Notes: generated from the sequence alone by a model not told the origin. DNA of 12,337 nucleotides from Flectobacillus sp. (GCA_023255485.1 JALRIJ010000085.1:1-12337), one strand, 5' to 3'; positions 1-12,337 are shown, counted from the first letter of the stretch. A program made the numbers and translations.

Positions 1-625
1 AGAAGCATCTTCTGGTGGATATAAAGAGATTATCATGAACATTCAAGGAGAAGATGTTTATGGCAAAATGAAGTTTGAATCGGGTGTTCACCGTGTTCAG
101 CGTGTGCCAGCAACGGAATCTCAGGGTCGTATTCATACTTCTGCGGCAACGGTTGCGGTTTTGCCAGAGGTGGATGAAGTGGATGTTCAAATCAATATGA
201 ACGATATTCGTAAGGATACGTTCTGTTCATCTGGAGCGGGTGGACAGTCGGTAAACACGACGTACTCAGCCGTAAGGGTAACACACATCCCAACAGGCTT
301 GGTGGTTCAGTGTCAGGATGAACGTTCGCAAATTAAGAACTTTGACAAAGCCATGACCGTTTTGCGTTCTCGTTTGTATGAAATTGAACTTGCAAAACAA
401 CAAGCAGCGATTGCAGGTGATCGTAAATCAATGGTTGGATCGGGGGACCGTTCAGATAAAATCAGAACTTACAATTATCCGCAAGGGCGTGTAACCGACC
501 ACCGTATTGGTTATACGGTTTATAACCTTCCTGTGGTAATGGATGGCGAAATTGGTGATTTCATCGAACAACTACGTATCGCTGAAAATGCAGAAAAATT
601 GAAAGAAGGAAACAGTGCAATTTAA
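1..625 (+). CDS. prfA: Peptide chain release factor 1, 5'-truncated by the window edge. The frame is open from position 2 and stops with TAA at 623-625.
   Basis: The translation carries the RF1-specific tripeptide anticodon context [24 protein letters not shown] (PxT motif; RF2 would have SPF). It has the universal GGQ peptidyl-hydrolase motif ([11 protein letters not shown]) and the conserved C-terminal [24 protein letters not shown]. There is no in-frame stop between position 2 and the first ATG at 35, so the gene starts upstream of the window. Confidence 0.92.
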
Positions 626-654
626 GCATTGAAGTACCTTATTATCGTATAACA

Positions 655-692
655 AAAACGTCCTCGAAGATTATTTTCGAGGACGTTTTTGG
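655..692 (+). terminator. Rho-independent terminator of prfA
   Basis: Perfect 14-bp inverted repeat AAAACGTCCTCGAA / TTCGAGGACGTTTT around a 7-nt loop, followed by TTTTTGG. It lies 30 bp after the prfA stop. Confidence 0.7.
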
Positions 693-705
693 TTAATATT
701 CTCTC

Positions 706-781
706 CTATATTTTCTAGTATTTGATTCTTCACATTAATGACCTAATTGAGATATAGAATAATTCTATACTTCAACATGAT
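706..781. repeat. Copy A of a ~75-bp bipartite intergenic repeat. The left motif is CTATATTTTCTAGTATTTGATTCT and the right motif is AATTCTATACTTCAACAT.
   Basis: The 24-nt left end is identical to 1015-1038. The right-end motif AATTC(Y)(n)TACTTCAACAT is shared. The distance from TTTTCTAGTA to AATTC is exactly 50 bp in all three copies. The middle is diverged. Confidence 0.7.
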
Positions 782-792
782 ACCTGATAATT

Positions 793-850
793 TATATTTT
801 TTTCCTTTTAACAGGCGACTGAAGTCACCTGCTAAAAAGAAAAAATATAC
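793..850. repeat. Stem-loop element H1. The 14-bp outer stem (797-810 / 833-845) has one C·A mismatch, and the 22-nt core is ACAGGCGACTGAAGTCACCTGC.
   Basis: Inverted repeat TTTTTTTCCTTTTA / TAAAAAGAAAAAA. The core contains an inner stem GGCGAC/GTCACC closed by a TGAA tetraloop. The core is homologous to those at 943-966 (in reverse complement) and 9074-9095. Confidence 0.65.
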
Positions 851-923
851 TCGTTTTGAGTTCAACAATTAGTTTGTTGTCCAAATATCAACGATAGAAA
901 TTCAGTTACCATTTGGGGTATCC

Positions 924-985
924 TTGTTATTCTTTTCCATTTAGACGGCGACTTCAGTCGCTGGCGAAATGGAAAAGAATAACAA
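924..985. repeat. Stem-loop element H2. It has a perfect 19-bp outer stem (924-942 / 967-985) and a 24-nt core, AGACGGCGACTTCAGTCGCTGGCG, which is the reverse complement of the H1 core.
   Basis: TTGTTATTCTTTTCCATTT pairs perfectly with AAATGGAAAAGAATAACAA. The reverse complement of the core contains GCGACTGAAGTCGCC, an 11-nt identity to the H1 core at GCGACTGAAGTC. The flanks CCATTT...TAAATGG are identical to H3. Confidence 0.7.
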
Positions 986-1014
986 ATGATAAAATACTTG
1001 AGCTGAAGTACTCA

Positions 1015-1090
1015 CTATATTTTCTAGTATTTGATTCTCCAAGTTAATCTTCTGTTTGAAATAGAGAGAAATTCCATACTTCAACATAAT
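1015..1090. repeat. Copy B of the ~75-bp bipartite repeat, in direct orientation relative to copy A.
   Basis: CTATATTTTCTAGTATTTGATTCT is identical to 706-729, and ...AATTCCATACTTCAACATAAT matches the right end of copy A. It ends 14 bp before the stop codon of the minus-strand GH3 gene. Confidence 0.7.
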
Positions 1091-1103
1091 TTATAACTCT
1101 TCC

Positions 1104-2588
1104 CTACAACTTATCCGCAATCGCTCTATCATTAGATAAACGAGGTACTTTATTTTGTCCTCCCAATTTACCTTGCGACTTCATATAGTCAATAAATGCG
1201 TTCTTTTTCAGACTATTAATTTTCAACGGTTGAAGAATATTTCCCGTCATCAAATCGTCGTAATAGACATTCAGTTCAGCGAGTTTCGTATTTAAGTCGT
1301 GGGCAAAACTAGCTAAATTAGTGGGTTGTTGCGAAAATTCAATCAACCATTCATGATAAGGTAGTTCTCCATCTTCTGGTGTTACTTGTGGTGCAACGGT
1401 AAACTCAACGACTTCCGCCTCTGGGTGACGCTTAGTAGCATATTGCATGGCTTTTTCGACTTCTTCCCCAATCACGTGTTCTCCAAAAGCAGAGATAAAG
1501 TGCTTGATTCTGCCCGACACAATAATCCGATACGGACTTAACGAAACAAACTTTACCGTATCACCTAGTGAATAGCCCCACAAACCCGCATTGGTATTCA
1601 TAATGACAGCGTAGTTTACACCCAATTCTACTTCTCCAATGTGCAAACGACGGGGATTTTCTGAGAAATATTCATCCGCAGGAATAAATTCATAAAATAC
1701 ACCCGAATTTAAAAGCATTAACATTCCCTCTTCCGTTTGGGTATCTTGATACGCAATGAATCCTTCTGATGCAGGATAGGTTTCAATCGAGTCAATTTGC
1801 TTACCGATAGATTCAATCAATTTGGCACGATAAGGCGAAAAATTCACCCCACCATACACAAACAAGGAGAAGTTTTTAAACACGTCCTTAATTTTCTTAT
1901 CGGTACGATTTTGAATACGGTCGAAGTACATTTGTACCCACGGCGGAATTCCCGAAATCAACGACATATCTTCATTGATGGTTTCATCAATAATTTTATC
2001 CAGTTTACTTTCCCAATCTTCCATACAATTGGTTTCGTAACTTGGCATCTGATTCGAACGCAAATAACCTGGCACATGGTGATTGACAATTCCCGATAAA
2101 CGTCCTGTGAAAATGCCGTTCTTTTTATCCATTTCAGGCGAGCCAGAAAGGAATATTAATTTTTTGTCAAGAAATTGCGAATTACCCGTTTCGTGTACAT
2201 AACTTAATAACGCATCCCTTGCTCCATTGATATGGAAACCTATTGATTCTTTAGAAATCGGAATATATTTAACACCCGAAGTAGTCCCTGATGTTTTAGC
2301 AAAGTAGAGCGGTTTCCCTTTCCACAAAATATCAGGCTCTCCAGCCACAACCATTTCAATATAGGGCTTCAAAGACTCATAGTCTTTTACAGGAACGTTA
2401 TTTTTAAAAGACTGATAATCAATAATTTCATCAAAATGATGATCTTTTCCAAAAAGCGTGTGTGCTGCTTCCGAGACCAACGATTTCATAAGTAATAGTT
2501 GTGTTTCTACAGCATTTTTTTCCCATTTACGACGGGCATTTATAACGTAAGCGGCAAAAGGTTTTGCCAATAGTGAGCGGAATCCCAT
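1104..2588 (-). CDS. GH3 auxin-responsive-promoter family protein. This is an ANL-superfamily acyl-acid amido synthetase-like adenylating enzyme, a bacterial homologue of plant GH3/JAR1.
   Basis: The 494-aa ORF has a GH3-family N-terminus (LAKPFAAYVINARRKWEKNAVETQ). It has the adenylate-forming P-loop-like motif FAKTSGTTSGVKYIPISKES, the ...YGGVNFSPYR... segment and ASEGF, as in bacterial GH3 proteins. This length and domain order is a common annotation in Flavobacteriia/Cytophagia. Confidence 0.8.
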   Translation of the reverse strand: MGFRSLLAKPFAAYVINARRKWEKNAVETQLLLMKSLVSEAAHTLFGKDHHFDEIIDYQSFKNNVPVKDYESLKPYIEMVVAGEPDILWKGKPLYFAKTSGTTSGVKYIPISKESIGFHINGARDALLSYVHETGNSQFLDKKLIFLSGSPEMDKKNGIFTGRLSGIVNHHVPGYLRSNQMPSYETNCMEDWESKLDKIIDETINEDMSLISGIPPWVQMYFDRIQNRTDKKIKDVFKNFSLFVYGGVNFSPYRAKLIESIGKQIDSIETYPASEGFIAYQDTQTEEGMLMLLNSGVFYEFIPADEYFSENPRRLHIGEVELGVNYAVIMNTNAGLWGYSLGDTVKFVSLSPYRIIVSGRIKHFISAFGEHVIGEEVEKAMQYATKRHPEAEVVEFTVAPQVTPEDGELPYHEWLIEFSQQPTNLASFAHDLNTKLAELNVYYDDLMTGNILQPLKINSLKKNAFIDYMKSQGKLGGQNKVPRLSNDRAIADKL

Positions 2589-2631
2589 AATGATATTGAT
2601 TATTAATCTTTTCCAAAGTTAAAAAATAAAG

Positions 2632-3285
2632 CTACATTCTAAACGTCATCCGATGAAAAGGCGTGACTCCATGCTCTCGAATAGCCGCTTTATGTTTGGG
2701 CGTTGGATAACCAGCGTTATGTTCCCAACCATAATGTGGATATGTTAAGGCAAGAGTTTCCATCAACTCATCTCGATACGTTTTCGCTAAAATAGAGGCA
2801 GCTGCAATGCTCATAAATTTGGCATCTCCTTTAACAATACAGGTATGCGGGATAAGCGGATAATTAGGAAAGCGATTACCATCAATTAATAAGTGTTCAG
2901 GACGGACGTTCAGTTTGTCAACACAGAGATGCATGGCTTTCATGCTGGCTTTCAAGATATTTATTTCATCAATATCCTGATTAGATACCTCGGCAATCGT
3001 CCAAGCGATGGCATCTCGTTGAATATCCAAGCGAATAATATCTCGCTGTTTTTTAGTTAATTGTTTGGAATCGTTCAACAACTCATGCGAATAATCCTTA
3101 GGTAAAATCACCGCTGCCGCCACTACAGGCCCTGCCAAACAGCCTCTTCCTGCTTCGTCGAGACCTGCCTCAATCATGGATTCATTGTAAAAACTTTTAA
3201 GCATATCGTAAAAGGTCGTAATTTTATGTAAAGTTAGGGCAATTTTATGATTAGAAACATCCGCTTCAAAAACATCCCTTGGCAT
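2632..3285 (-). CDS. rnhB: Ribonuclease HII. The coordinates give the longest ORF. The true start is more likely the Met 27 codons downstream, at 3204, giving ~190 aa.
   Basis: RNase HII catalytic motifs are present: [24 protein letters not shown] (the DEAGRG metal-binding site), [19 protein letters not shown] and [14 protein letters not shown]. The 36-aa N-terminal extension of the long ORF has no counterpart in Bacteroides RnhB as I remember it, which starts about 9-12 residues before the IEAG motif. Confidence 0.9.
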
Positions 3286-3436
3286 GATTTATGCTTAGTT
3301 TCGACTGTTAGTTAGATTTCAAAAGACTAACATAGTTCATCTTACAGCCCAAACCTCTTCGTTTGTTCAGCTGTTTACAAAGGAGAATACCCTTTCATTA
3401 GTAGAATTTTCACCCTGATTTTAAGATACATAGACA

Positions 3437-5998
3437 ATGCCTAATCTAAGAACAATAGGACTGACATTTACGCTGGCTGTAACATTTTTTGTAAATGTGA
3501 ATGCACAACAAGAAACTAGCCCATCCTTAGCCGATGCAGTTAGGCACTTTGAGTTATTGAGCTATCCCACAGCCATTACAAAATTTGAGCGTATTCTCAA
3601 AGAGAATAGCACAAGCCTTTCAGAAACAGACAAAACGTCTATCTTATTGAAATTAGCGTATAGTTATAAAAAAACTAGCAATGATATCAATGCAGAGAAA
3701 TACTACCGAGAAGCCCTAAAAACAAGTCCTAAGTTAGTAGGTGACGACCTAAAAACATATTTATATTTTGCTCAGACACTTGCCGCTAATGGCAAATTCA
3801 AAGAAGCCCAGCAATATTATGACAAATACGAACTGGTTGCCCCTTCTCTGAAAAGTGATAAAATGAGTGCCAGTGTCAGTACCAATGCTAAACTAAATAG
3901 CGACGTTACTCGTCTGAAAACAGATAAAGCTAAATATATTGTAGAATACCTGACTTTTAATTCAGATAAGCCAGAATTCAGCCCAATTTATTATAAAAGT
4001 GGTTTAGTTTTCTGCTCTGGAAAATCGCAAGGAGCTCTTTCTGCCAATAAAAAAGGAGGCTTTTTAGACTTGTACTACCTCAGCGATTTATCAATGGTGA
4101 AAGGGAATGTAGTGGACGGCGATGAAGAAGTACAGACCAAACGCAAAACAGACAATACGCTGACAGCCTCTCTGGGCAATGACTATTATTCGCAGGTTAC
4201 TGCCAACGATTCAAAAACACTGAGCTTTTTCGGAGGTGTGGATAAATCACCTGTTATTAGCACCGACAAAGGACAAATTGCCGAATCCGATATTTTCAGT
4301 AAAACTTTGAATACCAAATTACACGAGGGGCCGACAACTTTTAGTAATGACTTTTCTAAAATTATTTTTACCAGAAATAACTTTAATGAAGGCGAACAAG
4401 GACGTAGCGAAGACAATGTTACGAAGTTAAAACTCTATACCGCCGACAACAGCAAAGGAGTTTGGTCAAATCCTGTAGAATTACCCTTCAATGGGGACGA
4501 TTTTTCTACGGCACACCCTAGCTTATCCAAAGACGGACGTTACTTATATTTTGCCTCAGACAGACCGAATGGTTTTGGAGGTATGGACTTATGGATGGTC
4601 GAAAATGTCAACGGTAAATGGACTGACCCTAAAAATTTAGGAAAAGAAATCAATACGAAATCAACGGATGCATTTCCATTTGTTGATGAAAATGGCAATT
4701 TATACTACGCCTCAGAAGGACTTGGTGGCGAAGGAGGCTTGGACATCTTTTTTGTGGAAATGAAAAAAGGAATGCCTGTAGGTAAACCTTTCAACATTGG
4801 AGAACCTTTCAACTCTGTTAATGATGATTTCGGCATCATTACCGATGGAGAACGCAGTGTTGGTTTTTTTAGCTCTGACCGTAGAAAAGGGGTTGACGAC
4901 GATATTTATCGTTTCAAAAGACAATCTTCGCTCTATGATTGTAAGGAATTAACGATTAGCGTTATTGACCCCGACAATCACAAAAAGCCTATCGAAGGAG
5001 CAACGATTTCATTAAGCAAAAAAGGAGATACTCCAACTACACAAGTAACCAATGCGGGAGGGCTTGTTAAAATTTGTACTGAAGAAAACATCAACTATCA
5101 AATTAAAGTAGGTAAAGATGGTTATATCAATAATATTGTAGGCTATTCAACTCGAGGAGAAATTGGGGATGCTCCTTCTATTATTGAGGTGCCATTATCA
5201 AAAATAACCATCATCGAGTCAGAGACAACCATTATTCAAAAGCTCCCTCAAGTTGAAATTCCCAAGGAACTATTGGCTCCCAAACCTAAGGTAAATGTTA
5301 TCAGAGGGATTATTACAGAAGGAGTAGATAAAACTCCTATCGAAGGTGTTCTCTTGACCATGCGTAATCTTTGCGATGGCTCTGTACAAAGCTATACAAC
5401 CGAATTAGATGGTAAATATGCGTTTCAGGTTTTGCCAGGGTGTAATTATGAAATGGACTTTGAGAAAGAAGGATATGCCAGCATTACAGATCCTGTTGAA
5501 CTAAAAGATGCCGATGCAGACCCCGACACAACCGCATCAGATACCAAACCAGTAACGGTTATCAAAGTTGACAAGCTCAAAAAAGGGAAACCAAAGGTAA
5601 TTTCTAAAAACGTAGATTTGGTAAAAGAAGGTAATCTCATTACGCTCAACAATATCTACTATAATCCCAATAGTGTACAACTCAAAAAAGAATCGTATAA
5701 AGAATTAAACAAACTCGTTGCCAGTCTTCGTAATTATCCTGAAATGGTCATCGAAATCGGTTCACATACAGACTCTCGTGGCGATGCACAGGATAACCTT
5801 ACCTTATCTCAAAAGAAAGCGGCTAGTGTTGTCGATTTTATCACGAGTAGAGGTATTGACCGTAGTCGTGTAATTCCAAGAGGTTATGGAGAAACCATGT
5901 TAGTAAATCAATGTAAAGATGGTGTTATCTGTACTGAACGAGAGCACGAACGCAATAGAAGAACAACAATCCGAATTTTGAAAATTCGTCAAAAATAA
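3437..5998 (+). CDS. Secreted multidomain OmpA-family protein. The domains run signal peptide, TPR repeats, TolB-like/WD40-like beta-propeller (PD40), two carboxypeptidase-regulatory-like (CarbopepD_reg) beta-sandwich domains, then a C-terminal OmpA peptidoglycan-binding domain.
   Basis: The N-terminus MPNLRTIGLTFTLAVTFFVNVNAQQ is a signal peptide. TPR-like helical repeats follow (YYREALKTSPK...GKFKEAQQYYDKY). PD40 repeats are present (SLSKDGRYLYFASDRPNGFGGMDLWMV; FPFVDENGNLYYASEG; GFFSSDRRKGVDDDIY). CarbopepD_reg-like segments are LTISVIDPDNHKKPIEGATISL and IRGIITEGVDKTPIEGVLLTM. The OmpA-C motifs are LNNIYYNPNSVQL, IEIGSHTDSRGD, NLTLSQKKAASVVDF and RGYGET. Confidence 0.88.
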   Translation: MPNLRTIGLTFTLAVTFFVNVNAQQETSPSLADAVRHFELLSYPTAITKFERILKENSTSLSETDKTSILLKLAYSYKKTSNDINAEKYYREALKTSPKLVGDDLKTYLYFAQTLAANGKFKEAQQYYDKYELVAPSLKSDKMSASVSTNAKLNSDVTRLKTDKAKYIVEYLTFNSDKPEFSPIYYKSGLVFCSGKSQGALSANKKGGFLDLYYLSDLSMVKGNVVDGDEEVQTKRKTDNTLTASLGNDYYSQVTANDSKTLSFFGGVDKSPVISTDKGQIAESDIFSKTLNTKLHEGPTTFSNDFSKIIFTRNNFNEGEQGRSEDNVTKLKLYTADNSKGVWSNPVELPFNGDDFSTAHPSLSKDGRYLYFASDRPNGFGGMDLWMVENVNGKWTDPKNLGKEINTKSTDAFPFVDENGNLYYASEGLGGEGGLDIFFVEMKKGMPVGKPFNIGEPFNSVNDDFGIITDGERSVGFFSSDRRKGVDDDIYRFKRQSSLYDCKELTISVIDPDNHKKPIEGATISLSKKGDTPTTQVTNAGGLVKICTEENINYQIKVGKDGYINNIVGYSTRGEIGDAPSIIEVPLSKITIIESETTIIQKLPQVEIPKELLAPKPKVNVIRGIITEGVDKTPIEGVLLTMRNLCDGSVQSYTTELDGKYAFQVLPGCNYEMDFEKEGYASITDPVELKDADADPDTTASDTKPVTVIKVDKLKKGKPKVISKNVDLVKEGNLITLNNIYYNPNSVQLKKESYKELNKLVASLRNYPEMVIEIGSHTDSRGDAQDNLTLSQKKAASVVDFITSRGIDRSRVIPRGYGETMLVNQCKDGVICTEREHERNRRTTIRILKIRQK

Positions 5999-6018
5999 AT
6001 ACCCATTACACTTCGCCA

Positions 6019-6056
6019 AAACGGCTTAATCGTGCTGATTAAGTCGTTTTTTTTTA
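6019..6056 (+). terminator. Rho-independent terminator of the OmpA-family gene
   Basis: ACGGCTTAATC (6021-6031) pairs with GATTAAGTCGT (6037-6047) with one G·U. The loop is GTGCT and the stem is followed by a T9 run. It lies 23 bp after the stop. Confidence 0.75.
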
Positions 6057-6074
6057 TTCAAGCTATAAAAGATG

Positions 6075-6082
6075 TATTTTTG
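6075..6082 (+). promoter_or_regulatory. Candidate Bacteroidota sigma-A -7 element (TATTTTTG = TAnnTTTG) for ruvB
   Basis: Perfect match to the phylum -7 consensus, 41 bp upstream of the ruvB ATG. No clean -33 TTTG sits at the expected spacing, because that position lies in the terminator T-run. Confidence 0.35.
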
Positions 6083-6122
6083 AAAAACCGAATTTTAGGT
6101 TATACAAAAAGAAGCTACAAAC

Positions 6123-7148
6123 ATGCGTGAAGATTATTTAAAAGGAGATAAAGAACCGCTATCTGGACCAGAAAAGGAGATTGAAAAAGCCTTACGTCCA
6201 CTATCTTTTGATGATTTTGCGGGTCAAGATAAAGTACTTGAAAATCTGAAAGTATTTGTTCAGGCAGCCAAACAGCGAGAAGAAGCCCTCGACCACGTGC
6301 TACTCCATGGCCCTCCAGGGTTAGGAAAGACAACACTTTCAAATATTGTAGCCAATGAGTTAGGGGCGAACATCAAAATCACCTCTGGCCCTGTGTTGGA
6401 TAAACCGTCTGATTTAGCGGGTCTATTAACCAATTTGCAGCCCTACGATGTGTTATTTATTGATGAGATTCACCGCTTGAATCCGATTGTAGAAGAGTAC
6501 CTCTACTCGGCCATGGAAGATTACAAAATTGACATCTTGCTAGACTCTGGGCCCAATGCTCGCAGTGTCCAAATTTCGTTGAATCCCTTTACCCTCATTG
6601 GAGCAACGACTCGTGCAGGAATGTTGACCTCTCCCCTACGAGCTCGTTTCGGAATCAATGCTCGTTTGGAATATTATGATGCCAAATTACTAACCTCTAT
6701 TGTTAAACGTTCTTGCCAAATTTTGAACACTCCCGTAGATGATGAAGGAGCTTACGAAATAGCAAGACGAAGTAGAGGTACGCCTCGTATCGCCAACAAT
6801 TTGTTAAGAAGAACTCGTGATTTTGCCCAAGTAAAAGGCGATGGACGTATTACAGTACACATTGCTGAAATAGCCCTTGCCGCATTGGACGTAGATCAAA
6901 ACGGATTGGACGAAATGGATAACCGTATCTTAACAACCATCATCGAAAAATTCAAAGGAGGCCCTGTCGGCTTATCTACCATTGCAACAGCATGTGGAGA
7001 AGAAGCCGAAACCATCGAAGAGGTTTATGAACCTTTCTTAATCCAAGAAGGCTTCCTAAAACGTACCTCTCGTGGACGAGAAGCCACAGAGCTCGCTTAT
7101 AAACATTTAGGAATTGTACCCAAATTTAGAGCAGGGGAACTTTTCTAA
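6123..7148 (+). CDS. ruvB: Holliday junction branch-migration ATPase RuvB
   Basis: The 341-aa ORF has a Walker A motif ([20 protein letters not shown]) and a Walker B motif ([11 protein letters not shown]). It has sensor 1 (LIGATTRAG), the arginine finger region (SPLRARFGI) and the winged-helix C-terminus typical of RuvB. Confidence 0.96.
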
Positions 7149-7193
7149 CATCCTTATTTAGTGCTTGACTAAATCCCCTTTCATTGCCACTAT

Positions 7194-7256
7194 AAACCGA
7201 TGAGGATTTGGGTGTAACACGTTCTATGGAAGAACAACCTAAATCCTTATCGGTTT
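7194..7256 (+). other. Long imperfect stem-loop in the ruvB 3' region. The stem is about 20 bp with three G·U wobbles that pair only on the + strand, around a 20-nt loop.
   Basis: AAACCGATGAGGATTTGGGTG (7194-7214) pairs with CAACCTAAATCCTTATCGGTTT (7235-7256). Every non-Watson-Crick position is G in the 5' arm opposite T in the 3' arm. That is G·U on the + transcript but C·A on the - transcript. No U-tract follows. Confidence 0.5.
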
Positions 7257-7271
7257 ACTAAAACACCTAGC

Positions 7272-7310
7272 TGCTACGATGTATCAATCCGCAAGTAGCA
7301 CTTCTTTATA
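7272..7310 (+). terminator. Possible intrinsic terminator for ruvB: a short hairpin followed by CTTCTTTAT. It overlaps the 3' end of the convergent small ORF.
   Basis: TGCTAC (7272-7277) pairs with GTAGCA (7295-7300) around a 17-nt loop, followed by a T-rich tract at 7301-7310. Confidence 0.3.
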
Positions 7311-7605
7311 AGTTAAAATCCTTCTCTGATAGCTCCATTGTTTTGGGCTTGTTAGATGCTCCCGTTACAAAAAAGTGACTTTGACAACTCATACAACGAT
7401 AATATTTTAGTCCTGAAAAATAGACCAAAAACAGACGCACCAAAATTGGTCTTCTCTTACGATCTCCATGGCCAGAGCCACATACAGGACATTTAGAAGA
7501 AGACGATTTTCTGGAAAAATAAAAGGCCAGCATGACAAGCTGAATCAGCAATAACCCTAGTATAATCTTCACAAAAAGACTATCTAATAATTGAGAAAAC
7601 ATCAT
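7306..7605 (-). CDS. Small hypothetical protein of 99 aa with an N-terminal transmembrane helix and a C-terminal CxxC-(31)-CxxC zinc-ribbon-like module.
   Basis: The ORF carries a hydrophobic segment IILGLLLIQLVMLAFYF, then CPVCGSGHGDRKRRP...YRCMSCQSHF. Amino-acid composition is protein-like, and the ORF is convergent with ruvB. There is no homology I can name. Confidence 0.5.
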   Translation of the reverse strand: MMFSQLLDSLFVKIILGLLLIQLVMLAFYFSRKSSSSKCPVCGSGHGDRKRRPILVRLFLVYFSGLKYYRCMSCQSHFFVTGASNKPKTMELSEKDFNL

Positions 7606-7742
7606 ACGTTTAGATTTTGTGTTATTAGTTTAAAATCATTATTACAAGTATGTTTACTAGTTTGTACGATGTCATACAACCCTAGTAATAAATTTAACAA
7701 AAAGTCCTATTATGGTAATTTTACTATCGAATAACCTGCAAG

Positions 7743-7817
7743 TGGTTTTCTAGTAAAATGATTGTGTCGTAACTATGTATAAAACTGCCCATATCAATTC
7801 CTACTGTCAAGGAACGC
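7743..7817. repeat. Degenerate third copy (C) of the ~75-bp bipartite repeat.
   Basis: TTTTCTAGTAaaaTGATT at 7746-7763 and AATTCCTACTgtCAA at 7796-7810 match the left and right motifs of copies A and B, with the same 50-bp spacing between them. A further partial left-motif TTTaCTAGTtTTTG lies at 7648-7661. Confidence 0.45.
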
Positions 7818-7964
7818 ATAACATTATAATACTAAGTTGTGTAGAGAATTAACAAGAAGATTCTTAAGCGAAGATTGAAGCCACCAAGGGCAAGTGATAG
7901 TTTTTTTATTTTGGTAGTTCAATTTACAGTTTTAAAACAAGATAAGAAAACTCCGACTTTACTA

Positions 7965-7996
7965 TTTGCTCCTAAAATGAGTGAACGGTATTTTTG
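7965..7996 (+). promoter_or_regulatory. Candidate sigma-A promoter for the membrane-protein gene: TTTG (7965-7968), then 20 bp, then TATTTTTG (7989-7996).
   Basis: Both halves of the Bacteroidota consensus (-33 TTTG / -7 TAnnTTTG) are present at canonical spacing. The implied TSS is near 8003, giving a ~235-nt leader before the ATG at 8238. Confidence 0.4.
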
Positions 7997-8072
7997 AAGG
8001 TATTTGAGATTTATAAACTAAAAAATAAGCTATTACAAGCTCTTTTTCTTTACTACTCCTAGAAGAATCTGC

Positions 8073-8129
8073 TTTGTCAAACATCCCAAATACCACTGAT
8101 ACTCCCTGTTTTTTGTCAAATCTCCCAAA
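8073..8129 (+). promoter_or_regulatory. Two tandem 18-nt direct repeats, TTTGTCAAAcaTCCCAAA (8073-8090) and TTTGTCAAAtcTCCCAAA (8112-8129), with starts 39 bp apart, in the leader/promoter region of the membrane-protein gene.
   Basis: 16 of 18 positions are identical. The repeats sit 109 bp upstream of the 8238 ATG and about 76 bp downstream of the -7 element at 7989-7996. The 39-bp phasing, close to four helical turns, is typical of direct-repeat operator sites. Confidence 0.4.
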
Positions 8130-8237
8130 AGGTTGTTCTATAGCCCTATTACTTGACTTAGCTCTTCTGACCTCCCTACCTTTGTCTCAGTCAACCAGTA
8201 AATACCTCCAACACAATTCAATATAACACTCAATATC

Positions 8238-8894
8238 ATGGACACATTCTTACATTACGTACTTTATTTACACATCCTTTCAGGCTTTACCGCTTTAGTT
8301 GTCGGACTCATTCCTATGTTTAGCCAGAAAGGCGGAAAGGCTCATATTCTATGGGGAAAAGTTTACTATTGGGCTATGTTTTTAGTAGCTCTTACGGCAT
8401 TACTCCGCTTCAAACCTGAAGTACGTCTAGTCTTTTTAGGTTGCATTGCCGTGTTTAGTTTTTACAATACCTTCACAGGAGTACGCCTTATCAAGTTAAA
8501 AAATCAAGTCACTCAAGCAGGGTGGCAAGACTGGTTAGGAGCCTACCTAGCCTTAGGATGTAGCCTGTTAATGGGAGCTTATGCCGTTTATGTAGTAGTG
8601 GCATATAGCAATGTCTTCTTTGGAATTTTATTCACCGTCTTTGGAGCTTTTTGTATGCTACTAGCCGTGACAGATTTGTTGGTTTTTTCGGGTAAAAAAA
8701 GCGTAGAAAAACTCCATTGGTTATATGGACACATCAGCAGAATGGGTGGGTCTTACATTGCTACGGTAACCGCTTTTTTGGTAGTAAACAACAAAGGACT
8801 AGTACCTGATTTGATGGCATGGATTGCCCCTGGAGTCATTGGTGGAATCATTATTGGAAGGGTAACAAAGGCCTATAAAAAGAAGGTGGCTTAA
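8238..8894 (+). CDS. Hypothetical integral membrane protein of 218 aa with about 6 predicted TM helices.
   Basis: Hydrophobic segments alternate with short loops (LHILSGFTALVVGLIPMF; YYWAMFLVALTALL; VFLGCIAVFSFYNTF; LGAYLALGCSLLMGAYAVYVVVAY; FGILFTVFGAFCMLLAV; SYIATVTAFLVV; IAPGVIGGIIIG). The C-terminal KAYKKKVA is positive-inside. I do not recognise the family. Confidence 0.65.
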   Translation: MDTFLHYVLYLHILSGFTALVVGLIPMFSQKGGKAHILWGKVYYWAMFLVALTALLRFKPEVRLVFLGCIAVFSFYNTFTGVRLIKLKNQVTQAGWQDWLGAYLALGCSLLMGAYAVYVVVAYSNVFFGILFTVFGAFCMLLAVTDLLVFSGKKSVEKLHWLYGHISRMGGSYIATVTAFLVVNNKGLVPDLMAWIAPGVIGGIIIGRVTKAYKKKVA

Positions 8895-9059
8895 CTATGG
8901 GGAGCTTCCTATTTTGACAATGGACTAACACCCATTGCTGAGACATATCGCCCTCACAGGGCTACCGAAGTCGTTTTACTTATAGTGAAATCCTAGGTAG
9001 CAACTAAGGATATTACCACAAAATTTGTCAGAGAATCAACTGTTTTTGTATAAAGAATA

Positions 9060-9109
9060 AACTATTCCATTTAACAGGTAAATGAATTCACCCGCTAAAT
9101 GGAATAGTT
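9060..9109. repeat. Stem-loop element H3. It has a perfect 14-bp outer stem (9060-9073 / 9096-9109) around a 22-nt core, ACAGGTAAATGAATTCACCCGC. A T-rich tract follows on the minus strand, so it may also terminate the flotillin gene.
   Basis: AACTATTCCATTTA pairs with TAAATGGAATAGTT. The core aligns with the H1 core: AACAGG...TGAA...CACCyGCTAA. The flanks CCATTT/AAATGG are identical to H2. On the minus strand the hairpin is followed by TTATTCTTTAT. Confidence 0.65.
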
Positions 9110-9213: not shown

Positions 9214-11121
9214 TTAATTTGCACTTACATTTTCTCCACCCTCCTCTTTATCAACTTGCTTTTTCTTGGTCATTTCTTCCATTAAACGCAAGCCTAACAG
9301 ACCGCTCAAAGCACCATTTTGGTCATTATTTCCTCCTGTAATTAAAATATCTGGAATGACCTTGATTCGTTCTCTACCGATACTTTCCGTGATTTTCAGC
9401 TGCGTAAAGTTGTCTCCACCCATCGCAGAAACGGCCAATTGATATGCTTCGGCATCAGCTTTACCAATGGCTAAGATTTTCTCCGCTTCGGCAGCACCCG
9501 TCTTACTGATTTTTTCAGCTTCGGCATTAGCAAGTAACTTTATTCGTTCCGATTCGGCACTGGCTTGTAATTTCACCCGTTCTGCCTCTGCTCCTGCTTG
9601 TAGCTTCAAGCTTTGAGCCTCCCCTTGTGCTTTTTTCACGGCTGCATCAGCAACTCTTTCAGCAATAACAACTCCTTGATCGGCTTTCACAATATCCTTC
9701 TGAATTTCGGCAATGGCGGTTTCTTTCTCTAAAGCCTGACGAGTTTCTTGTGCCATTTTTTGCGTATCATAAGTTACCTTTTGCTCTTCGGCTAACTTAC
9801 GGTCAGTTAAGGTTTTCATCAACGATTCTGGCGGAACAATATCCCCTATCAGCGTATCTACGGCATTGACATTATATTGAGAAAGCACTTCGCCAATGTA
9901 TTTCCGAGCCGTTTCCTGACGTTGGGTACGAGAACCCAAGAACGAAATTACATCAGAGCCTTGTGCCGAGTTACGGAAATAGTTACCAATCGTCGGCTCT
10001 AACACCTGACTCACCAAATTGTGCATATTCCCGAAACGAGCAATCACTTTGGGAGCTTCGTAATTAGGAATGTGGATAATCTGCGACACGTCCAAATTAA
10101 AAGGGAATCCATCTTTTGAACGCACCGTAATGGTCGAAAGGTTTTTATCTAATTGGTGCGATTCTGATCTTGCACTCGCCCAGTTGAGTACCAAGTTGGT
10201 CGTTGGCACTAATTCAATTTTTTGAACAAAGGTATTCACTGGATATTTCCCAGGGCCAAGCGGTTCTGTCCACACCCCTTTGTACCCTTTTGAAACAATA
10301 TTTCCATGTTTAAATTCTGTTCCACTGATGTCTTCACCATCTTCGCCCACATACGAAATCACGACCCCCACATACCCAATCGGAATTTCGGTCATGTGGA
10401 TTTCTTCTACCTTCACAAACCACGGGTTTAAGTTATAAGACCCTGCCAAGACGACCTGCTGTTGAAGCCCTTTATTCCCTCCGCCATTCAAAAAAGCATC
10501 TACGTCTTGAAAATTATTGTGCCCATCAATTGACTTACCCGAAATTTGTCCTGCCTCAATAGAAGCACCGTCCAAGGTCGTCACAATCCCAACCATATTT
10601 TCTTGAATTTCTGTTAAATCCGTCAACTGTACTTCAAACAATAAGGTATTTATTCGGTACGAACCAGCCGTTATAATAGCCGTTTGTCGCCCTTTTCTAC
10701 CCCCATTTTTCAAGAATGCTTCCGTATCTTGAAAGCTATCACATTCGATTTTACGGCCTAGAATACGACCTGTTTCCAACTCTTTTCCATCACGTGCCAA
10801 GACCAGCCCAATTTTACCCGTAGGAATCACCGTCAGAGGCTGTAAGGTAATGTCATACTGCCAAATCCAATACCAGAAATAAATCCCAGGAGATAGCGGT
10901 TTTGCCTGATAACCCGCTTCGCCTTCGGTGGCAAAAATACGCCCATCGGGTAGTTCTTTTTTATCGCCAAACAAGACAAACTTCTTCGTTACCAGCCCAA
11001 TACGGTCTTCTGGAACGATGATAATACCCAATAAACGAAAGATAAATTTGTAAAAAATTAGGCAAAACAAGGGAACTGCAATGCCAATGATGGAAGTAAT
11101 AGAAAGGCTCATTTTCAACAA
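9214..11121 (-). CDS. SPFH-domain / flotillin-family membrane protein (band 7, YqiK/FloT-like). It has an N-terminal membrane anchor, an internally duplicated beta-rich segment and a C-terminal Ala/Glu-rich coiled coil.
   Basis: The 635-aa ORF begins with the hydrophobic N-terminus SIIGIAVPLFCLIFYKFIF. The SPFH core follows. The C-terminal region carries flotillin-type EA repeats (AEAERVKLQASAESERIKLLANAEAEKISKTGAAEAEKILAIGKADAEAYQ). Residues ~120-165 (ECDSFQDTEAFLKNGGRKG...) are repeated at ~200-245 (GHNNFQDVDAFLNGGGNKG...). Confidence 0.85.
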   Translation of the reverse strand: MLKMSLSITSIIGIAVPLFCLIFYKFIFRLLGIIIVPEDRIGLVTKKFVLFGDKKELPDGRIFATEGEAGYQAKPLSPGIYFWYWIWQYDITLQPLTVIPTGKIGLVLARDGKELETGRILGRKIECDSFQDTEAFLKNGGRKGRQTAIITAGSYRINTLLFEVQLTDLTEIQENMVGIVTTLDGASIEAGQISGKSIDGHNNFQDVDAFLNGGGNKGLQQQVVLAGSYNLNPWFVKVEEIHMTEIPIGYVGVVISYVGEDGEDISGTEFKHGNIVSKGYKGVWTEPLGPGKYPVNTFVQKIELVPTTNLVLNWASARSESHQLDKNLSTITVRSKDGFPFNLDVSQIIHIPNYEAPKVIARFGNMHNLVSQVLEPTIGNYFRNSAQGSDVISFLGSRTQRQETARKYIGEVLSQYNVNAVDTLIGDIVPPESLMKTLTDRKLAEEQKVTYDTQKMAQETRQALEKETAIAEIQKDIVKADQGVVIAERVADAAVKKAQGEAQSLKLQAGAEAERVKLQASAESERIKLLANAEAEKISKTGAAEAEKILAIGKADAEAYQLAVSAMGGDNFTQLKITESIGRERIKVIPDILITGGNNDQNGALSGLLGLRLMEEMTKKKQVDKEEGGENVSAN

Positions 11122-11353: not shown

Positions 11354-12337
11354 ATGTTTAAACGTCTATTACTCACCATCCTCACTTTGTTTCTATGTAA
11401 ATTAGTCGTTGGTCAAAGTATTTCGTCGAACTCACCACTTTGTTCAGATAACGCTCCTACCTTAGAACTAAAAGCAACGGGTGGCAACACCTACGCTTGG
11501 ACAGGCCCTAATGGATTTACCTCCTCCCTCCAAAACCCAAGCATTACCAAAGCTAGCACCTCTCAGGCAGGTACCTACACCTGTATCATTAATGGGAAAA
11601 CAACGCTAACTACCAATGTGAAAATTGGGTCTTATAATAGTAGTACAGGTATATCCTATTATACCTCCAACGCTCAGTTATTGGTCTATGCTTACAATAA
11701 TTCCATCGATATAAGTGGATTTTCCTTTGATTGGACAGGGCCTAACAATCTTAAAAATACCTCTAGTCGTGTTACAATCAATGGCTATGAGAAAACCAAT
11801 GCAGGGACTTATGCAGTTACAATCAAAGACGACTTTGGATGTAGTTATACAAAGTCAACTAATGTAACAATTAATGACTGTTCTTACAAGCCTTTTATTT
11901 ATTATGGCATTTCTGATAAAAGCGGAATAGAGGACAGGAGTGACAATACTGGCAATCCTCCAAACTTATATGTCTGTGACGGAGCCAGCGCTCGCTATCG
12001 TGTAGATACTACCTACTGGGGAAATAATGTAAAAATTCAATGGTTTAAAAATGGCCAGGCTATTGACAAGGCGACTGGTTTAACCTATACAAGTAGCGAG
12101 GCGGCTACCTTCTATGCCCAACTTACAAAAGGTAGTTGTGTTTACAAGACTCAAAAGTTATCCATTCAGAATGTTATTCCTAAACCTTCCGTTTATACGA
12201 ATGATAGCTTCTTAGGTTCTACTAGTATCTGTTCAAAAGGTGATACGATTACTCTATACGCATCAAATAGCGTTACGATACTTGCAGGCAGTCGCAGTTA
12301 TCAGTGGTTTAAGGATGGAAAAAAGATTTACGATGGC
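11354..12337 (+). CDS. Secreted surface protein made of tandem Ig-like (immunoglobulin-fold) repeats. It is 3'-truncated by the window edge, with 328 codons present. It is probably a large adhesin or gliding/T9SS-type cell-surface protein.
   Basis: The ATG at 11354 follows an in-frame TGA at 11282. The signal peptide is MFKRLLLTILTLFLCKLVVGQ. A repeated motif C..xxxL.AxGGxxYxWTGPNGF...AGTYTC recurs (…DWTGPNNLKN…AGTYAVTIKDDFGC…; …SRSYQWFKDGK…). The frame is open to the last base of the window. Confidence 0.75.
   Translation, partial: MFKRLLLTILTLFLCKLVVGQSISSNSPLCSDNAPTLELKATGGNTYAWTGPNGFTSSLQNPSITKASTSQAGTYTCIINGKTTLTTNVKIGSYNSSTGISYYTSNAQLLVYAYNNSIDISGFSFDWTGPNNLKNTSSRVTINGYEKTNAGTYAVTIKDDFGCSYTKSTNVTINDCSYKPFIYYGISDKSGIEDRSDNTGNPPNLYVCDGASARYRVDTTYWGNNVKIQWFKNGQAIDKATGLTYTSSEAATFYAQLTKGSCVYKTQKLSIQNVIPKPSVYTNDSFLGSTSICSKGDTITLYASNSVTILAGSRSYQWFKDGKKIYDG

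Follow-up and report, generated by a model that had tools for sequence, protein, structure and literature searches.

Repetitive extragenic palindromic (REP) sequences and the tyrosine transposases associated with REPs (RAYTs) are the standard case of a transposase kept by its host alongside non-autonomous repeats, with nearly all characterisation done on class 2 enzymes in Proteobacteria. Classical REPs occur in hundreds of copies, and the REP/RAYT systems are reportedly the subject of work by Nunvar (2010), Ton-Hoang (2012), and Bertels and Rainey. A REP-transposase gene flanked by its own REPs is termed a REPtron (Corneloup 2021, PMC8266576). Among the TnpA_Y1 enzymes, subclass 1.2 occurs at low copy in Bacteroidetes and Cyanobacteria, carries the motif Y---Q--HH in a protein of approximately 148 amino acids (aa), is without the properties of an insertion sequence (IS), and was reported in 2018 to have no associated repeats (Quentin et al. 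2018, PMC6006769). Our literature search found no later report tying subclass 1.2 to repeats. Here we describe a family of hairpins represented three times (H1, H2, and H3) in a 12,337-nucleotide (nt) stretch of DNA from Flectobacillus sp. (GCA_023255485.1 JALRIJ010000085.1:1-12337), which we refer to as the window. We consider it likely that H1-H3 are lineage-specific single-stranded DNA substrates of a domesticated IS200-like Y1 transposase, comparable to REPs and to bacterial interspersed mosaic elements (BIMEs). This reading is supported by the membership of the three hairpins in one family, the restriction of that family to one clade, covariation in its stems, its association with a Y1 gene in seven lineages, the vertical inheritance of this gene under purifying selection, and the presence or absence of a hairpin-bearing composite element in related genomes.

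The three hairpins are located at 793-849 (H1), 924-985 (H2), and 9060-9109 (H3), close to where the initial annotation had placed them, and all fold beyond dinucleotide-shuffled controls with z-scores between -5.4 and -10.5. Each folds better on one strand, which we take as its sense strand. H1 and H3 are more stable on the minus strand (-29.4 versus -17.8 kcal/mol and -30.4 versus -19.3 kcal/mol, respectively), and H2 on the plus strand (-36.2 versus -32.8 kcal/mol). Scores from a covariance model of the family (model R1, built from 15 copies) give the same assignment, with 82.9 bits on the minus strand against 49 on the plus strand for H1, 79.9 bits on the plus strand against 56 on the minus strand for H2, and 73.9 bits on the minus strand against 50.2 on the plus strand for H3. 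The orientation of H2 is opposite to that of H1 and H3, as had been observed at the outset. Read on these strands, the cores are TTTAGCAGGTGAC TTCA GTCGCCTGTTAAA in H1, TTTAGACGGCGAC TTCA GTCGCTGGCGAAA in H2, and TTTAGCGGGTGAA TTCA TTTACCTGTTAAA in H3, and each pairs almost completely by means of G.U wobbles (G.T as DNA). The 5-6-bp inner stem within a 22-nt internal loop that was originally proposed is an artefact of the weaker strand. A single 30-nt pattern with 19 fixed positions, TTTAGNNGGNGANTTCANTNNCNNGNNAAA, fits H1(-), H2(+), and H3(-), with an expectation of 0.00 in shuffled windows. Model R1 matches only these three sites in the window.

All three hairpins occupy spacers between convergent genes, in agreement with the initial annotation. 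The spacer containing H1 and H2 separates the 3' end of prfA (35-625, plus strand) from a GH3 gene (1104-2588, minus strand), and that containing H3 separates a DUF2306 gene (8238-8894, plus strand) from a Band_7/flotillin-like gene (9214-11121, minus strand). A scan against Rfam at a permissive E-value gave no match at a gathering threshold, with best scores of 22-26 bits against thresholds of 37-113, and the expectation that the hairpins belong to no known Rfam family therefore stands. Phe_leader, MIR807, and Acido-Lenti-1 were all sub-threshold and were rejected as candidates.

Covariation in the family is extensive. An ungapped alignment of 27 distinct copies over a 21-bp stem has 94.5% of its cells paired, and 12 of the 21 stem pairs have changed on both sides. 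The covariation score is 0.442, compared with 0.174 for shuffled alignments (0 of 500 reach the observed value) and at most 0.133 for slid registers; the covariation first noticed in three copies is thus real in the larger set. Among the non-Watson-Crick cells there are 35 G.T and 4 A.C, and folding that is specific to one strand is suggested by these sequences. The outer stems had been described as completely different between copies, which is wrong: a segment of approximately 40 nt, TTCC(A/T)TTTAG-core-AAA(T/A)GGAA, is common to nearly all members in place of the 22 nt first proposed, and the outermost 5-10 bp alone vary. The conserved TTAG pairs with CTAA/TTAA inside the stem. Two core types recur. 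Core type A, AGCAGGTGAC-TTCA-GTCGCCTGTT, is present in H1 and in loci L015, L009, L050, L052, L059, and L060, and core type B, AGACGGCGAC-TTCA-GTCGCTGGCG, is present in H2 and in L006, L009, and L066, with variants in L050 and L052. The H3 core is a third variant, with orthologues in L024 and L087 that are single point changes apart. H3 is a transition-decayed copy of a canonical core, GCGGGCGAA-TTAA-TTCGCCCGC, altered mainly by C-to-T transitions.

The family is confined to one clade of Spirosomataceae. A strict pattern scan of one genome per species (185,579 species) returned 10 matches. Half of these have matching outer stems, and all five come from one metagenome-assembled genome (MAG), Spirosomataceae bacterium LE_383543, which has a mean DNA identity of approximately 87% to the window where the two align. 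The remaining five are stemless and equal the number expected by chance. A relaxed pattern applied to the metagenome collection found true copies in JACCDQ/JACCDS contigs only, and some 45 other matching stretches were stemless. When model R1 was used to search 305 kb, including approximately 200 kb of control DNA, it matched family loci only and gave no match in the controls. The further copies anticipated from a covariance-model search thus exist in related genomes, amounting to approximately 12-13 distinct sites after orthologous loci from fragmentary assemblies are merged. All of them are found at the 3' ends of genes, most in spacers between convergent genes. Inside a hairpin, several assemblies are broken or have a gap: L001 and L002 end at window position 9073, L085 and L086 end inside H2, L009 has a run of Ns at 4806-4830, and contigs also end at hairpins in L015, L052, L060, and L066. 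Because short-read assemblies break inside the hairpins, copy numbers derived from assemblies are lower bounds, and the family is probably under-represented in MAGs. The same property makes these hairpins a recurrent source of broken short-read assemblies in freshwater Spirosomataceae, where they could also be mistaken for terminators or non-coding RNAs.

The initial annotation had proposed a REP-like family whose hairpins are recognised by a RAYT/IS200-like enzyme with its gene elsewhere, and had called for a search for Y1-transposase genes adjoining copies. Such genes were found, and together with the additional copies they support that proposal. A 1,088-nt contig from the same metagenome project (L048) contains a 141-aa open reading frame (ORF) that matches PF01797 (Y1_Tnp) with E=3e-27, and one family hairpin abuts its stop codon while another lies 38 nt upstream of its start. 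Homologues traced to contigs have 73-99% identity and represent six lineages, including the cultured Arcicella sp. DC2W. The gene occupies one neighbourhood in 6/6 lineages, consisting of 23S_rRNA_IVP, AP_endonuc_2, Y1, a 144-aa hypothetical gene, and GT2 on the opposite strand. Family hairpins are present on both flanks of Y1 in every case and are the sole covariance-model matches within up to 20 kb. A seventh lineage is provided by Spirosoma agri (L089), where a homologue of 55% identity is found in another context (ILVD, Y1, adh_short), with four hairpins around it that have the core GCGGGCGAA-TTAA-TTCGCCCGC. The repeat-flanked gene is seen in L048, L076, L079, L080, L081, L082, L083, and L089, and the canonical core also flanks the Y1 genes of L079 and L081.

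The hairpins beside the Y1 gene are the best-preserved copies of the family, with near-perfect stems of 19-24 bp. In L080, the hairpin downstream of Y1 is TTCCATTCCATTTAGCAGGCGAC-TTAA-GTCGCCTGCTAAATGGAATGGAA and scores 74 bits, inside the 70-86 bit range of the window family. It combines core A, free of wobble pairs, with a B-type outer stem, and next to it comes AAAATGATA, which also occurs in the H2 tail; a blastn comparison aligns H2 and the 3' tail behind it with this hairpin and its own tail (E=5e-10). Two side observations concern these flanking hairpins and the neighbouring gene. The 4-nt loop of the Y1-upstream hairpin is inverted (TGAA versus TTCA) with unchanged stems between L048 652-681 and L076 5441-5470, and the same inversion distinguishes L080 6811-6850 from L083 1877-1916; in each pair the rest of the locus is 98-99% identical. 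The pattern resembles repeated inversion of the loop through arm-to-arm recombination or template switching. The 144-aa hypothetical gene (L076 6002-6436, with orthologues in L079, L080, L082, and L083) is without a Pfam match and always follows Y1 in the Arcicella-like clade; in Spirosoma agri it is not beside Y1.

Sequence features of the Y1 protein bear on whether it is a domesticated enzyme or an ordinary mobile one. The HLH (HuH) motif and the catalytic tyrosine in RYIFNQ are intact in the orthologues, and the motifs DHLH, WQ, and YIFNQE(S/N/Q)HH (that is, Y---Q--HH) can be read in seven orthologues and in S. agri. The tyrosine motif, YIFNQ..HH, differs from the Y---NP of the class 2 RAYT/TnpA_REP enzymes. 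Judged by motif comparison with Table 1 and the text of PMC6006769, the protein belongs to TnpA_Y1 subclass 1.2. An unlikely alternative is that the hairpins are gene-less miniature derivatives of an ordinary mobile IS200/IS605 element, of the kind represented by miniature inverted-repeat transposable elements (MITEs) and palindrome-associated transposable elements (PATEs), with the Y1 gene counting as one IS200 copy and H1 and H2 as the hairpins of its left and right ends, left over from an internal deletion. Such an origin would suit a protein that passes the NCBIfam transpos_IS200 model (67.4 bits against a cut-off of 55) and whose nearest solved structures are the ISDra2 and IS608 TnpA transposases. 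The gene and its flanking hairpins together span approximately 600-700 bp, the size of an IS200 element, and the window arrangement of hairpin A, spacer, and hairpin B has the same outline as hairpin, gene, and hairpin. Against this, the gene stays at one conserved chromosomal locus across lineages, with a synonymous divergence (dS) that reaches above 1.5 and ratios of nonsynonymous to synonymous divergence (dN/dS) of 0.06-0.12. Each protein cluster is found on 1-3 contigs, and the subclass 1.2 signature is that of a low-copy group without IS properties (PMC6006769). As far as the sequences indicate, the Y1 gene is thus single-copy, vertically inherited, and under purifying selection, as in a REPtron. 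The multi-copy occurrence at variable sites and the same-strand end hairpins of IS200/IS605 elements and PATEs were not seen. A tblastn search of the spacers between hairpins found no remnant of Y1 coding sequence, with all matches having E above 0.1; an 11-mer at window 873-883 that was considered as a remnant has an E of 0.88, as chance would give. No match to the composite element described next was present in the plasmid and phage collections.

H1 and H2, which had been treated as free-standing, are instead modules of a 384-bp composite at 703-1086. This BIME-like mosaic element is built in the order D2a box, hairpin A, spacer, hairpin B, tail, and D2b box. The two D2 boxes (D2a, 706-781; D2b, 1015-1090) are terminal direct repeats of 76 nt that are 82% identical. 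D2a, at the left end, corresponds to the conserved 3' flank of hairpin A read on the minus strand, and D2b, at the right end, finishes 14 nt before the GH3 stop codon. The spacer between hairpins A and B (850-923) has ACTCGTTTTGAGT beside hairpin A, and the 3' tail of hairpin B (986-1014, plus strand) starts with AAATGATAAAATACTTGAG. These modules recur elsewhere. The D2a sequence is kept beside A-type hairpins in L009, L050, and L028, and the spacer aligns with those of L009, L050, L059, L060, and L015. The tail is common to L050, L066, and L028, and in part to the sequence after the downstream Y1 hairpin of L080. Over longer spans, window 704-976 aligns with another MAG locus, L009, at 79% identity over 274 nt, and window 712-1002 aligns with L050 at 75% over 297 nt. 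A possible homology of the D2 boxes to the region downstream of Y1 in L080 and L083 is marginal (p ~0.03 against mononucleotide shuffles) and is not relied on.

The order A(-), spacer, B(+) is shared by the window and L009, L050, L052, L059, L060, L028, and L031, with spacers of 0-80 nt, and the A-side flank, B-side tail, and D2 boxes are conserved across the doublet loci. The composite and its related loci thus have the alternating repeat orientation and conserved linkers that define BIMEs. Locus L052 also contains a large palindrome (4418-4615) in which an A hairpin, a spacer, and a B hairpin are followed by an inverted spacer and an inverted A hairpin before the sequence runs into the contig end.

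Comparison with close relatives delimits the composite. Both the window and MAG LE_383543 contain it. L087, a close relative with 97% identity in the GH3 protein, has identical flanks as far as window position 702 and again from position 1087, but approximately 450 nt of unrelated sequence stands in place of the composite. Because L087 has other sequence between the same breakpoints, 703-1086 constitutes a discrete unit by which close relatives differ. The L087 insert (11486-12035) contains a 118-aa ORF (11612-11968) whose match to HTH_3 is weak, at 18.8 bits, and falls short of the cut-off. An insertion hot spot may lie between the prfA terminator and the GH3 stop codon. The surrounding DNA is itself a mosaic, in that window 1-5400 compared with L008, from a related MAG, has blocks of 95-100% identity beside blocks of 60-85%. 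In the comparison of L084 with L087, identity between the MAG and L087 is 94% over sequence in which the window reaches only 84% with either. These alignments suggest that the freshwater Spirosomataceae concerned recombine frequently. That the spacer is highly conserved between the window and the MAG was rejected as a sign of function, since neighbouring coding blocks are equally conserved, which reflects the mosaic relatedness.

The position of the hairpins at gene ends raises the question of a role in RNA. We regard it as quite improbable that they are intrinsic terminators or 3'-untranslated region (UTR) stabilisers of the convergent genes, with adjacency to Y1 being incidental. All copies do lie at gene 3' ends, mostly convergent, and their wobble pairs are G.U on one strand. 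H3(-) lies 105 nt beyond the stop codon of the Band_7 gene; a T-rich stretch comes after it, with 5 T in the next 8 nt, and a terminator scan picked it up. H1 and H2, however, have no U-tract on either strand, and their 3' sides are A-rich on both strands. Intrinsic termination by H1 and H2 was therefore rejected, given also that prfA already has a terminator-like hairpin at 653-691, with 18 pairs followed by GTTTTTG, that ends 12 nt before the composite. The genes upstream in L009, L015, and L052 likewise have their own canonical terminator ahead, and in these loci, as in the window, the element begins just 3' of that terminator hairpin. The solo copy in L015 is antisense to its sole adjacent gene, and solo copies are not oriented after the upstream gene. 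The H1/H2 composite is absent from the corresponding spacer of L087, Y1 genes of different genera are flanked by one and the same core, and the hairpins are accompanied from locus to locus by the conserved spacer, tail, and D2 modules. The primary function as a structured RNA, terminator, or stability module that the initial annotation offered as its other option is thus unsupported.

A further reading, in which 703-1086 is a small structured non-coding RNA or a small-protein gene family unrelated to transposition, is very unlikely. The D2 boxes do contain a TAnnTTTG-like motif on the plus strand, short ORFs (MLKY...) can be read on the minus strand, and the window and the MAG share 97-99% identity over 703-1086. 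The identity is not specific to the element, however, since the flanking coding blocks are equally identical. A small ORF or promoter in the D2 box was rejected as a candidate: TAnnTTTG and the ATG are not conserved in the paralogous copies in L009, L050, and L028, and D2a contains an in-frame stop codon. The order of modules also differs between loci, and no Rfam family was found at threshold.

By analogy with IS200/IS605 TnpA and RAYT/TnpA_REP, the following mechanism can be proposed for REP-like substrates of the Y1 enzyme. The substrate bound by the enzyme would be the hairpin folded in single-stranded DNA of one strand, with cutting and rejoining expected at the hairpin foot. Hairpins and hairpin doublets would in this way be copied or moved into tolerated sites just 3' of genes, after their terminators. 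H1 and H2 make up a BIME-like mosaic in which two opposite hairpins are accompanied by a conserved spacer, a tail, and D2 boxes at the termini, and H3 is a solo copy whose accumulated C-to-T changes preserve G.T pairing on the sense strand. We infer the catalysis, strand specificity, and mobilisation in this scheme, as well as possible effects on the host such as protection of transcript 3' ends. A broader proposal, to which we give an even chance, is that in subclass 1.2 an IS200-type transposase was domesticated a second time, independently, to give a REPtron-like system. Its recognition hairpin, (T)TAGCGGGCGAA-TTAA-TTCGCCCGCTA(A), would have been kept across Spirosomataceae genera since before the split of Arcicella and Spirosoma, and its dispersed progeny would form BIME-like mosaics such as 703-1086.

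Several observations weigh against interpreting H1-H3 as substrates of a domesticated transposase. No Y1 gene is tied to the genome of the window itself, and the link is made by hairpin similarity from related metagenomic lineages. The family has a low copy number, with about a dozen sites in all and five strict matches in one MAG, and no dispersed copies were found in 38 kb of Arcicella DC2W sequence outside the Y1 locus or in 20 kb of S. agri. The protein scores 30.8 bits against the NCBIfam model REP_Tyr_transpos (RAYT, NF047646), failing its cut-off of 80, and its nearest solved structures are the IS transposases named above and not the E. coli RAYT. No unpaired 5' tag of the GTAG/CGTC type is conserved at the hairpin foot in the aligned copies. 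The excess of G.T over A.C falls to approximately 7 to 2 when counted as independent events, as many G.T cells are inherited, and the copy orientation used for the count was picked by a model whose training set included copies with G.T pairs. The orientation of the loop (TTCA or TGAA) was discarded as a marker of the strand, as it flips between loci that are 98-99% identical. The difference in L087 is a replacement with no clean empty site, and the local mosaic relatedness leaves its direction undecided.

Three other features of the window were recorded alongside the hairpin family. Two small hairpins at 8918-8963, just 3' of the DUF2306 stop codon, score 24.6 bits against Acido-Lenti-1 (gathering threshold 37) and are probably the DUF2306 terminator region and not a member of Acido-Lenti-1. 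An inverted repeat 3' of ruvB (7193-7257) has 21-nt arms that are 90% complementary and 23 nt apart, and is unrelated to the hairpin family. Three 33-nt tandem-like repeats at 9475-9559 lie in the 3' part of the Band_7 gene and encode an alanine/glutamate-rich C-terminal region.

If the interpretation is correct, a class 1 IS200-like subclass in Bacteroidetes has independently reached the arrangement of the REP/RAYT systems, and domestication of single-strand DNA transposases is a recurrent outcome. The system is tractable, with an enzyme of only 141 aa, a perfect and conserved hairpin, and cultured hosts in Arcicella sp. DC2W and Spirosoma agri. It would let differences in hairpin recognition between IS200 transposases and REP-associated enzymes be compared.

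Four described systems invite comparison. Relative to the IS200/IS605 elements and PATEs, the similarities are a Y1 transposase of approximately 140 aa with subterminal hairpins, single-stranded DNA as the expected substrate, and the existence of hairpin-only derivatives. The present Y1 gene differs in occupying a fixed locus with conserved neighbours and in not being seen in multiple copies, and no TnpB gene or omega-RNA was seen. The doublet hairpins are also opposite to one another by covariance-model score, whereas both hairpins of IS200/IS605 fold on the same strand. The Bacteroidetes RAYT subclasses 2.6 and 2.4 (PMC6006769) come from the same phylum, and their genes are likewise flanked by unusual hairpins ('atypical secondary structures') with copies elsewhere in the genome. 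Subclass 2.6 has the motifs NH[LIV]H and YIH[QN]NP in a protein of approximately 179 aa, in contrast to the DHLH and YIFNQ..HH of the 141-aa protein described here.

A parallel in the arrangement of repeats and gene is offered by the REPtrons of Enterobacteria, Pseudomonas, and Stenotrophomonas (PMC8266576). Both have short extragenic palindromes dispersed at gene 3' ends, occurring as solo copies and as opposite doublets with conserved linkers, as in BIMEs. In both, the HUH-Y1 gene with the best copies on its flanks is single-copy, inherited vertically, and subject to purifying selection, and hairpin and enzyme are conserved together across lineages. The systems differ in the enzyme, which here has the Y---Q--HH motif of IS200-like class 1, subclass 1.2, and not the class 2 Y---NP motif. 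They differ also in the hairpins, which here are long (19-24-bp stems) and without the unpaired GTAG/CGTC tag, and in the observed copies, which here are tens at most as opposed to hundreds. The protein itself resembles TnpA_Y1 subclass 1.2 as described (PMC6006769) in its length of approximately 141-148 aa, its DH(L/V)H, WQ, and YIFNQE(S/N/Q)HH motifs, its low copy number, and its Bacteroidetes host. It departs from that description in that every gene examined in the Spirosomataceae clade is flanked by strong hairpins, with related hairpins dispersed in the genome. Repeats tied to a domesticated Y1 transposase are thus of a known kind, and what is new is their occurrence with an enzyme subclass that had been reported to be without them.

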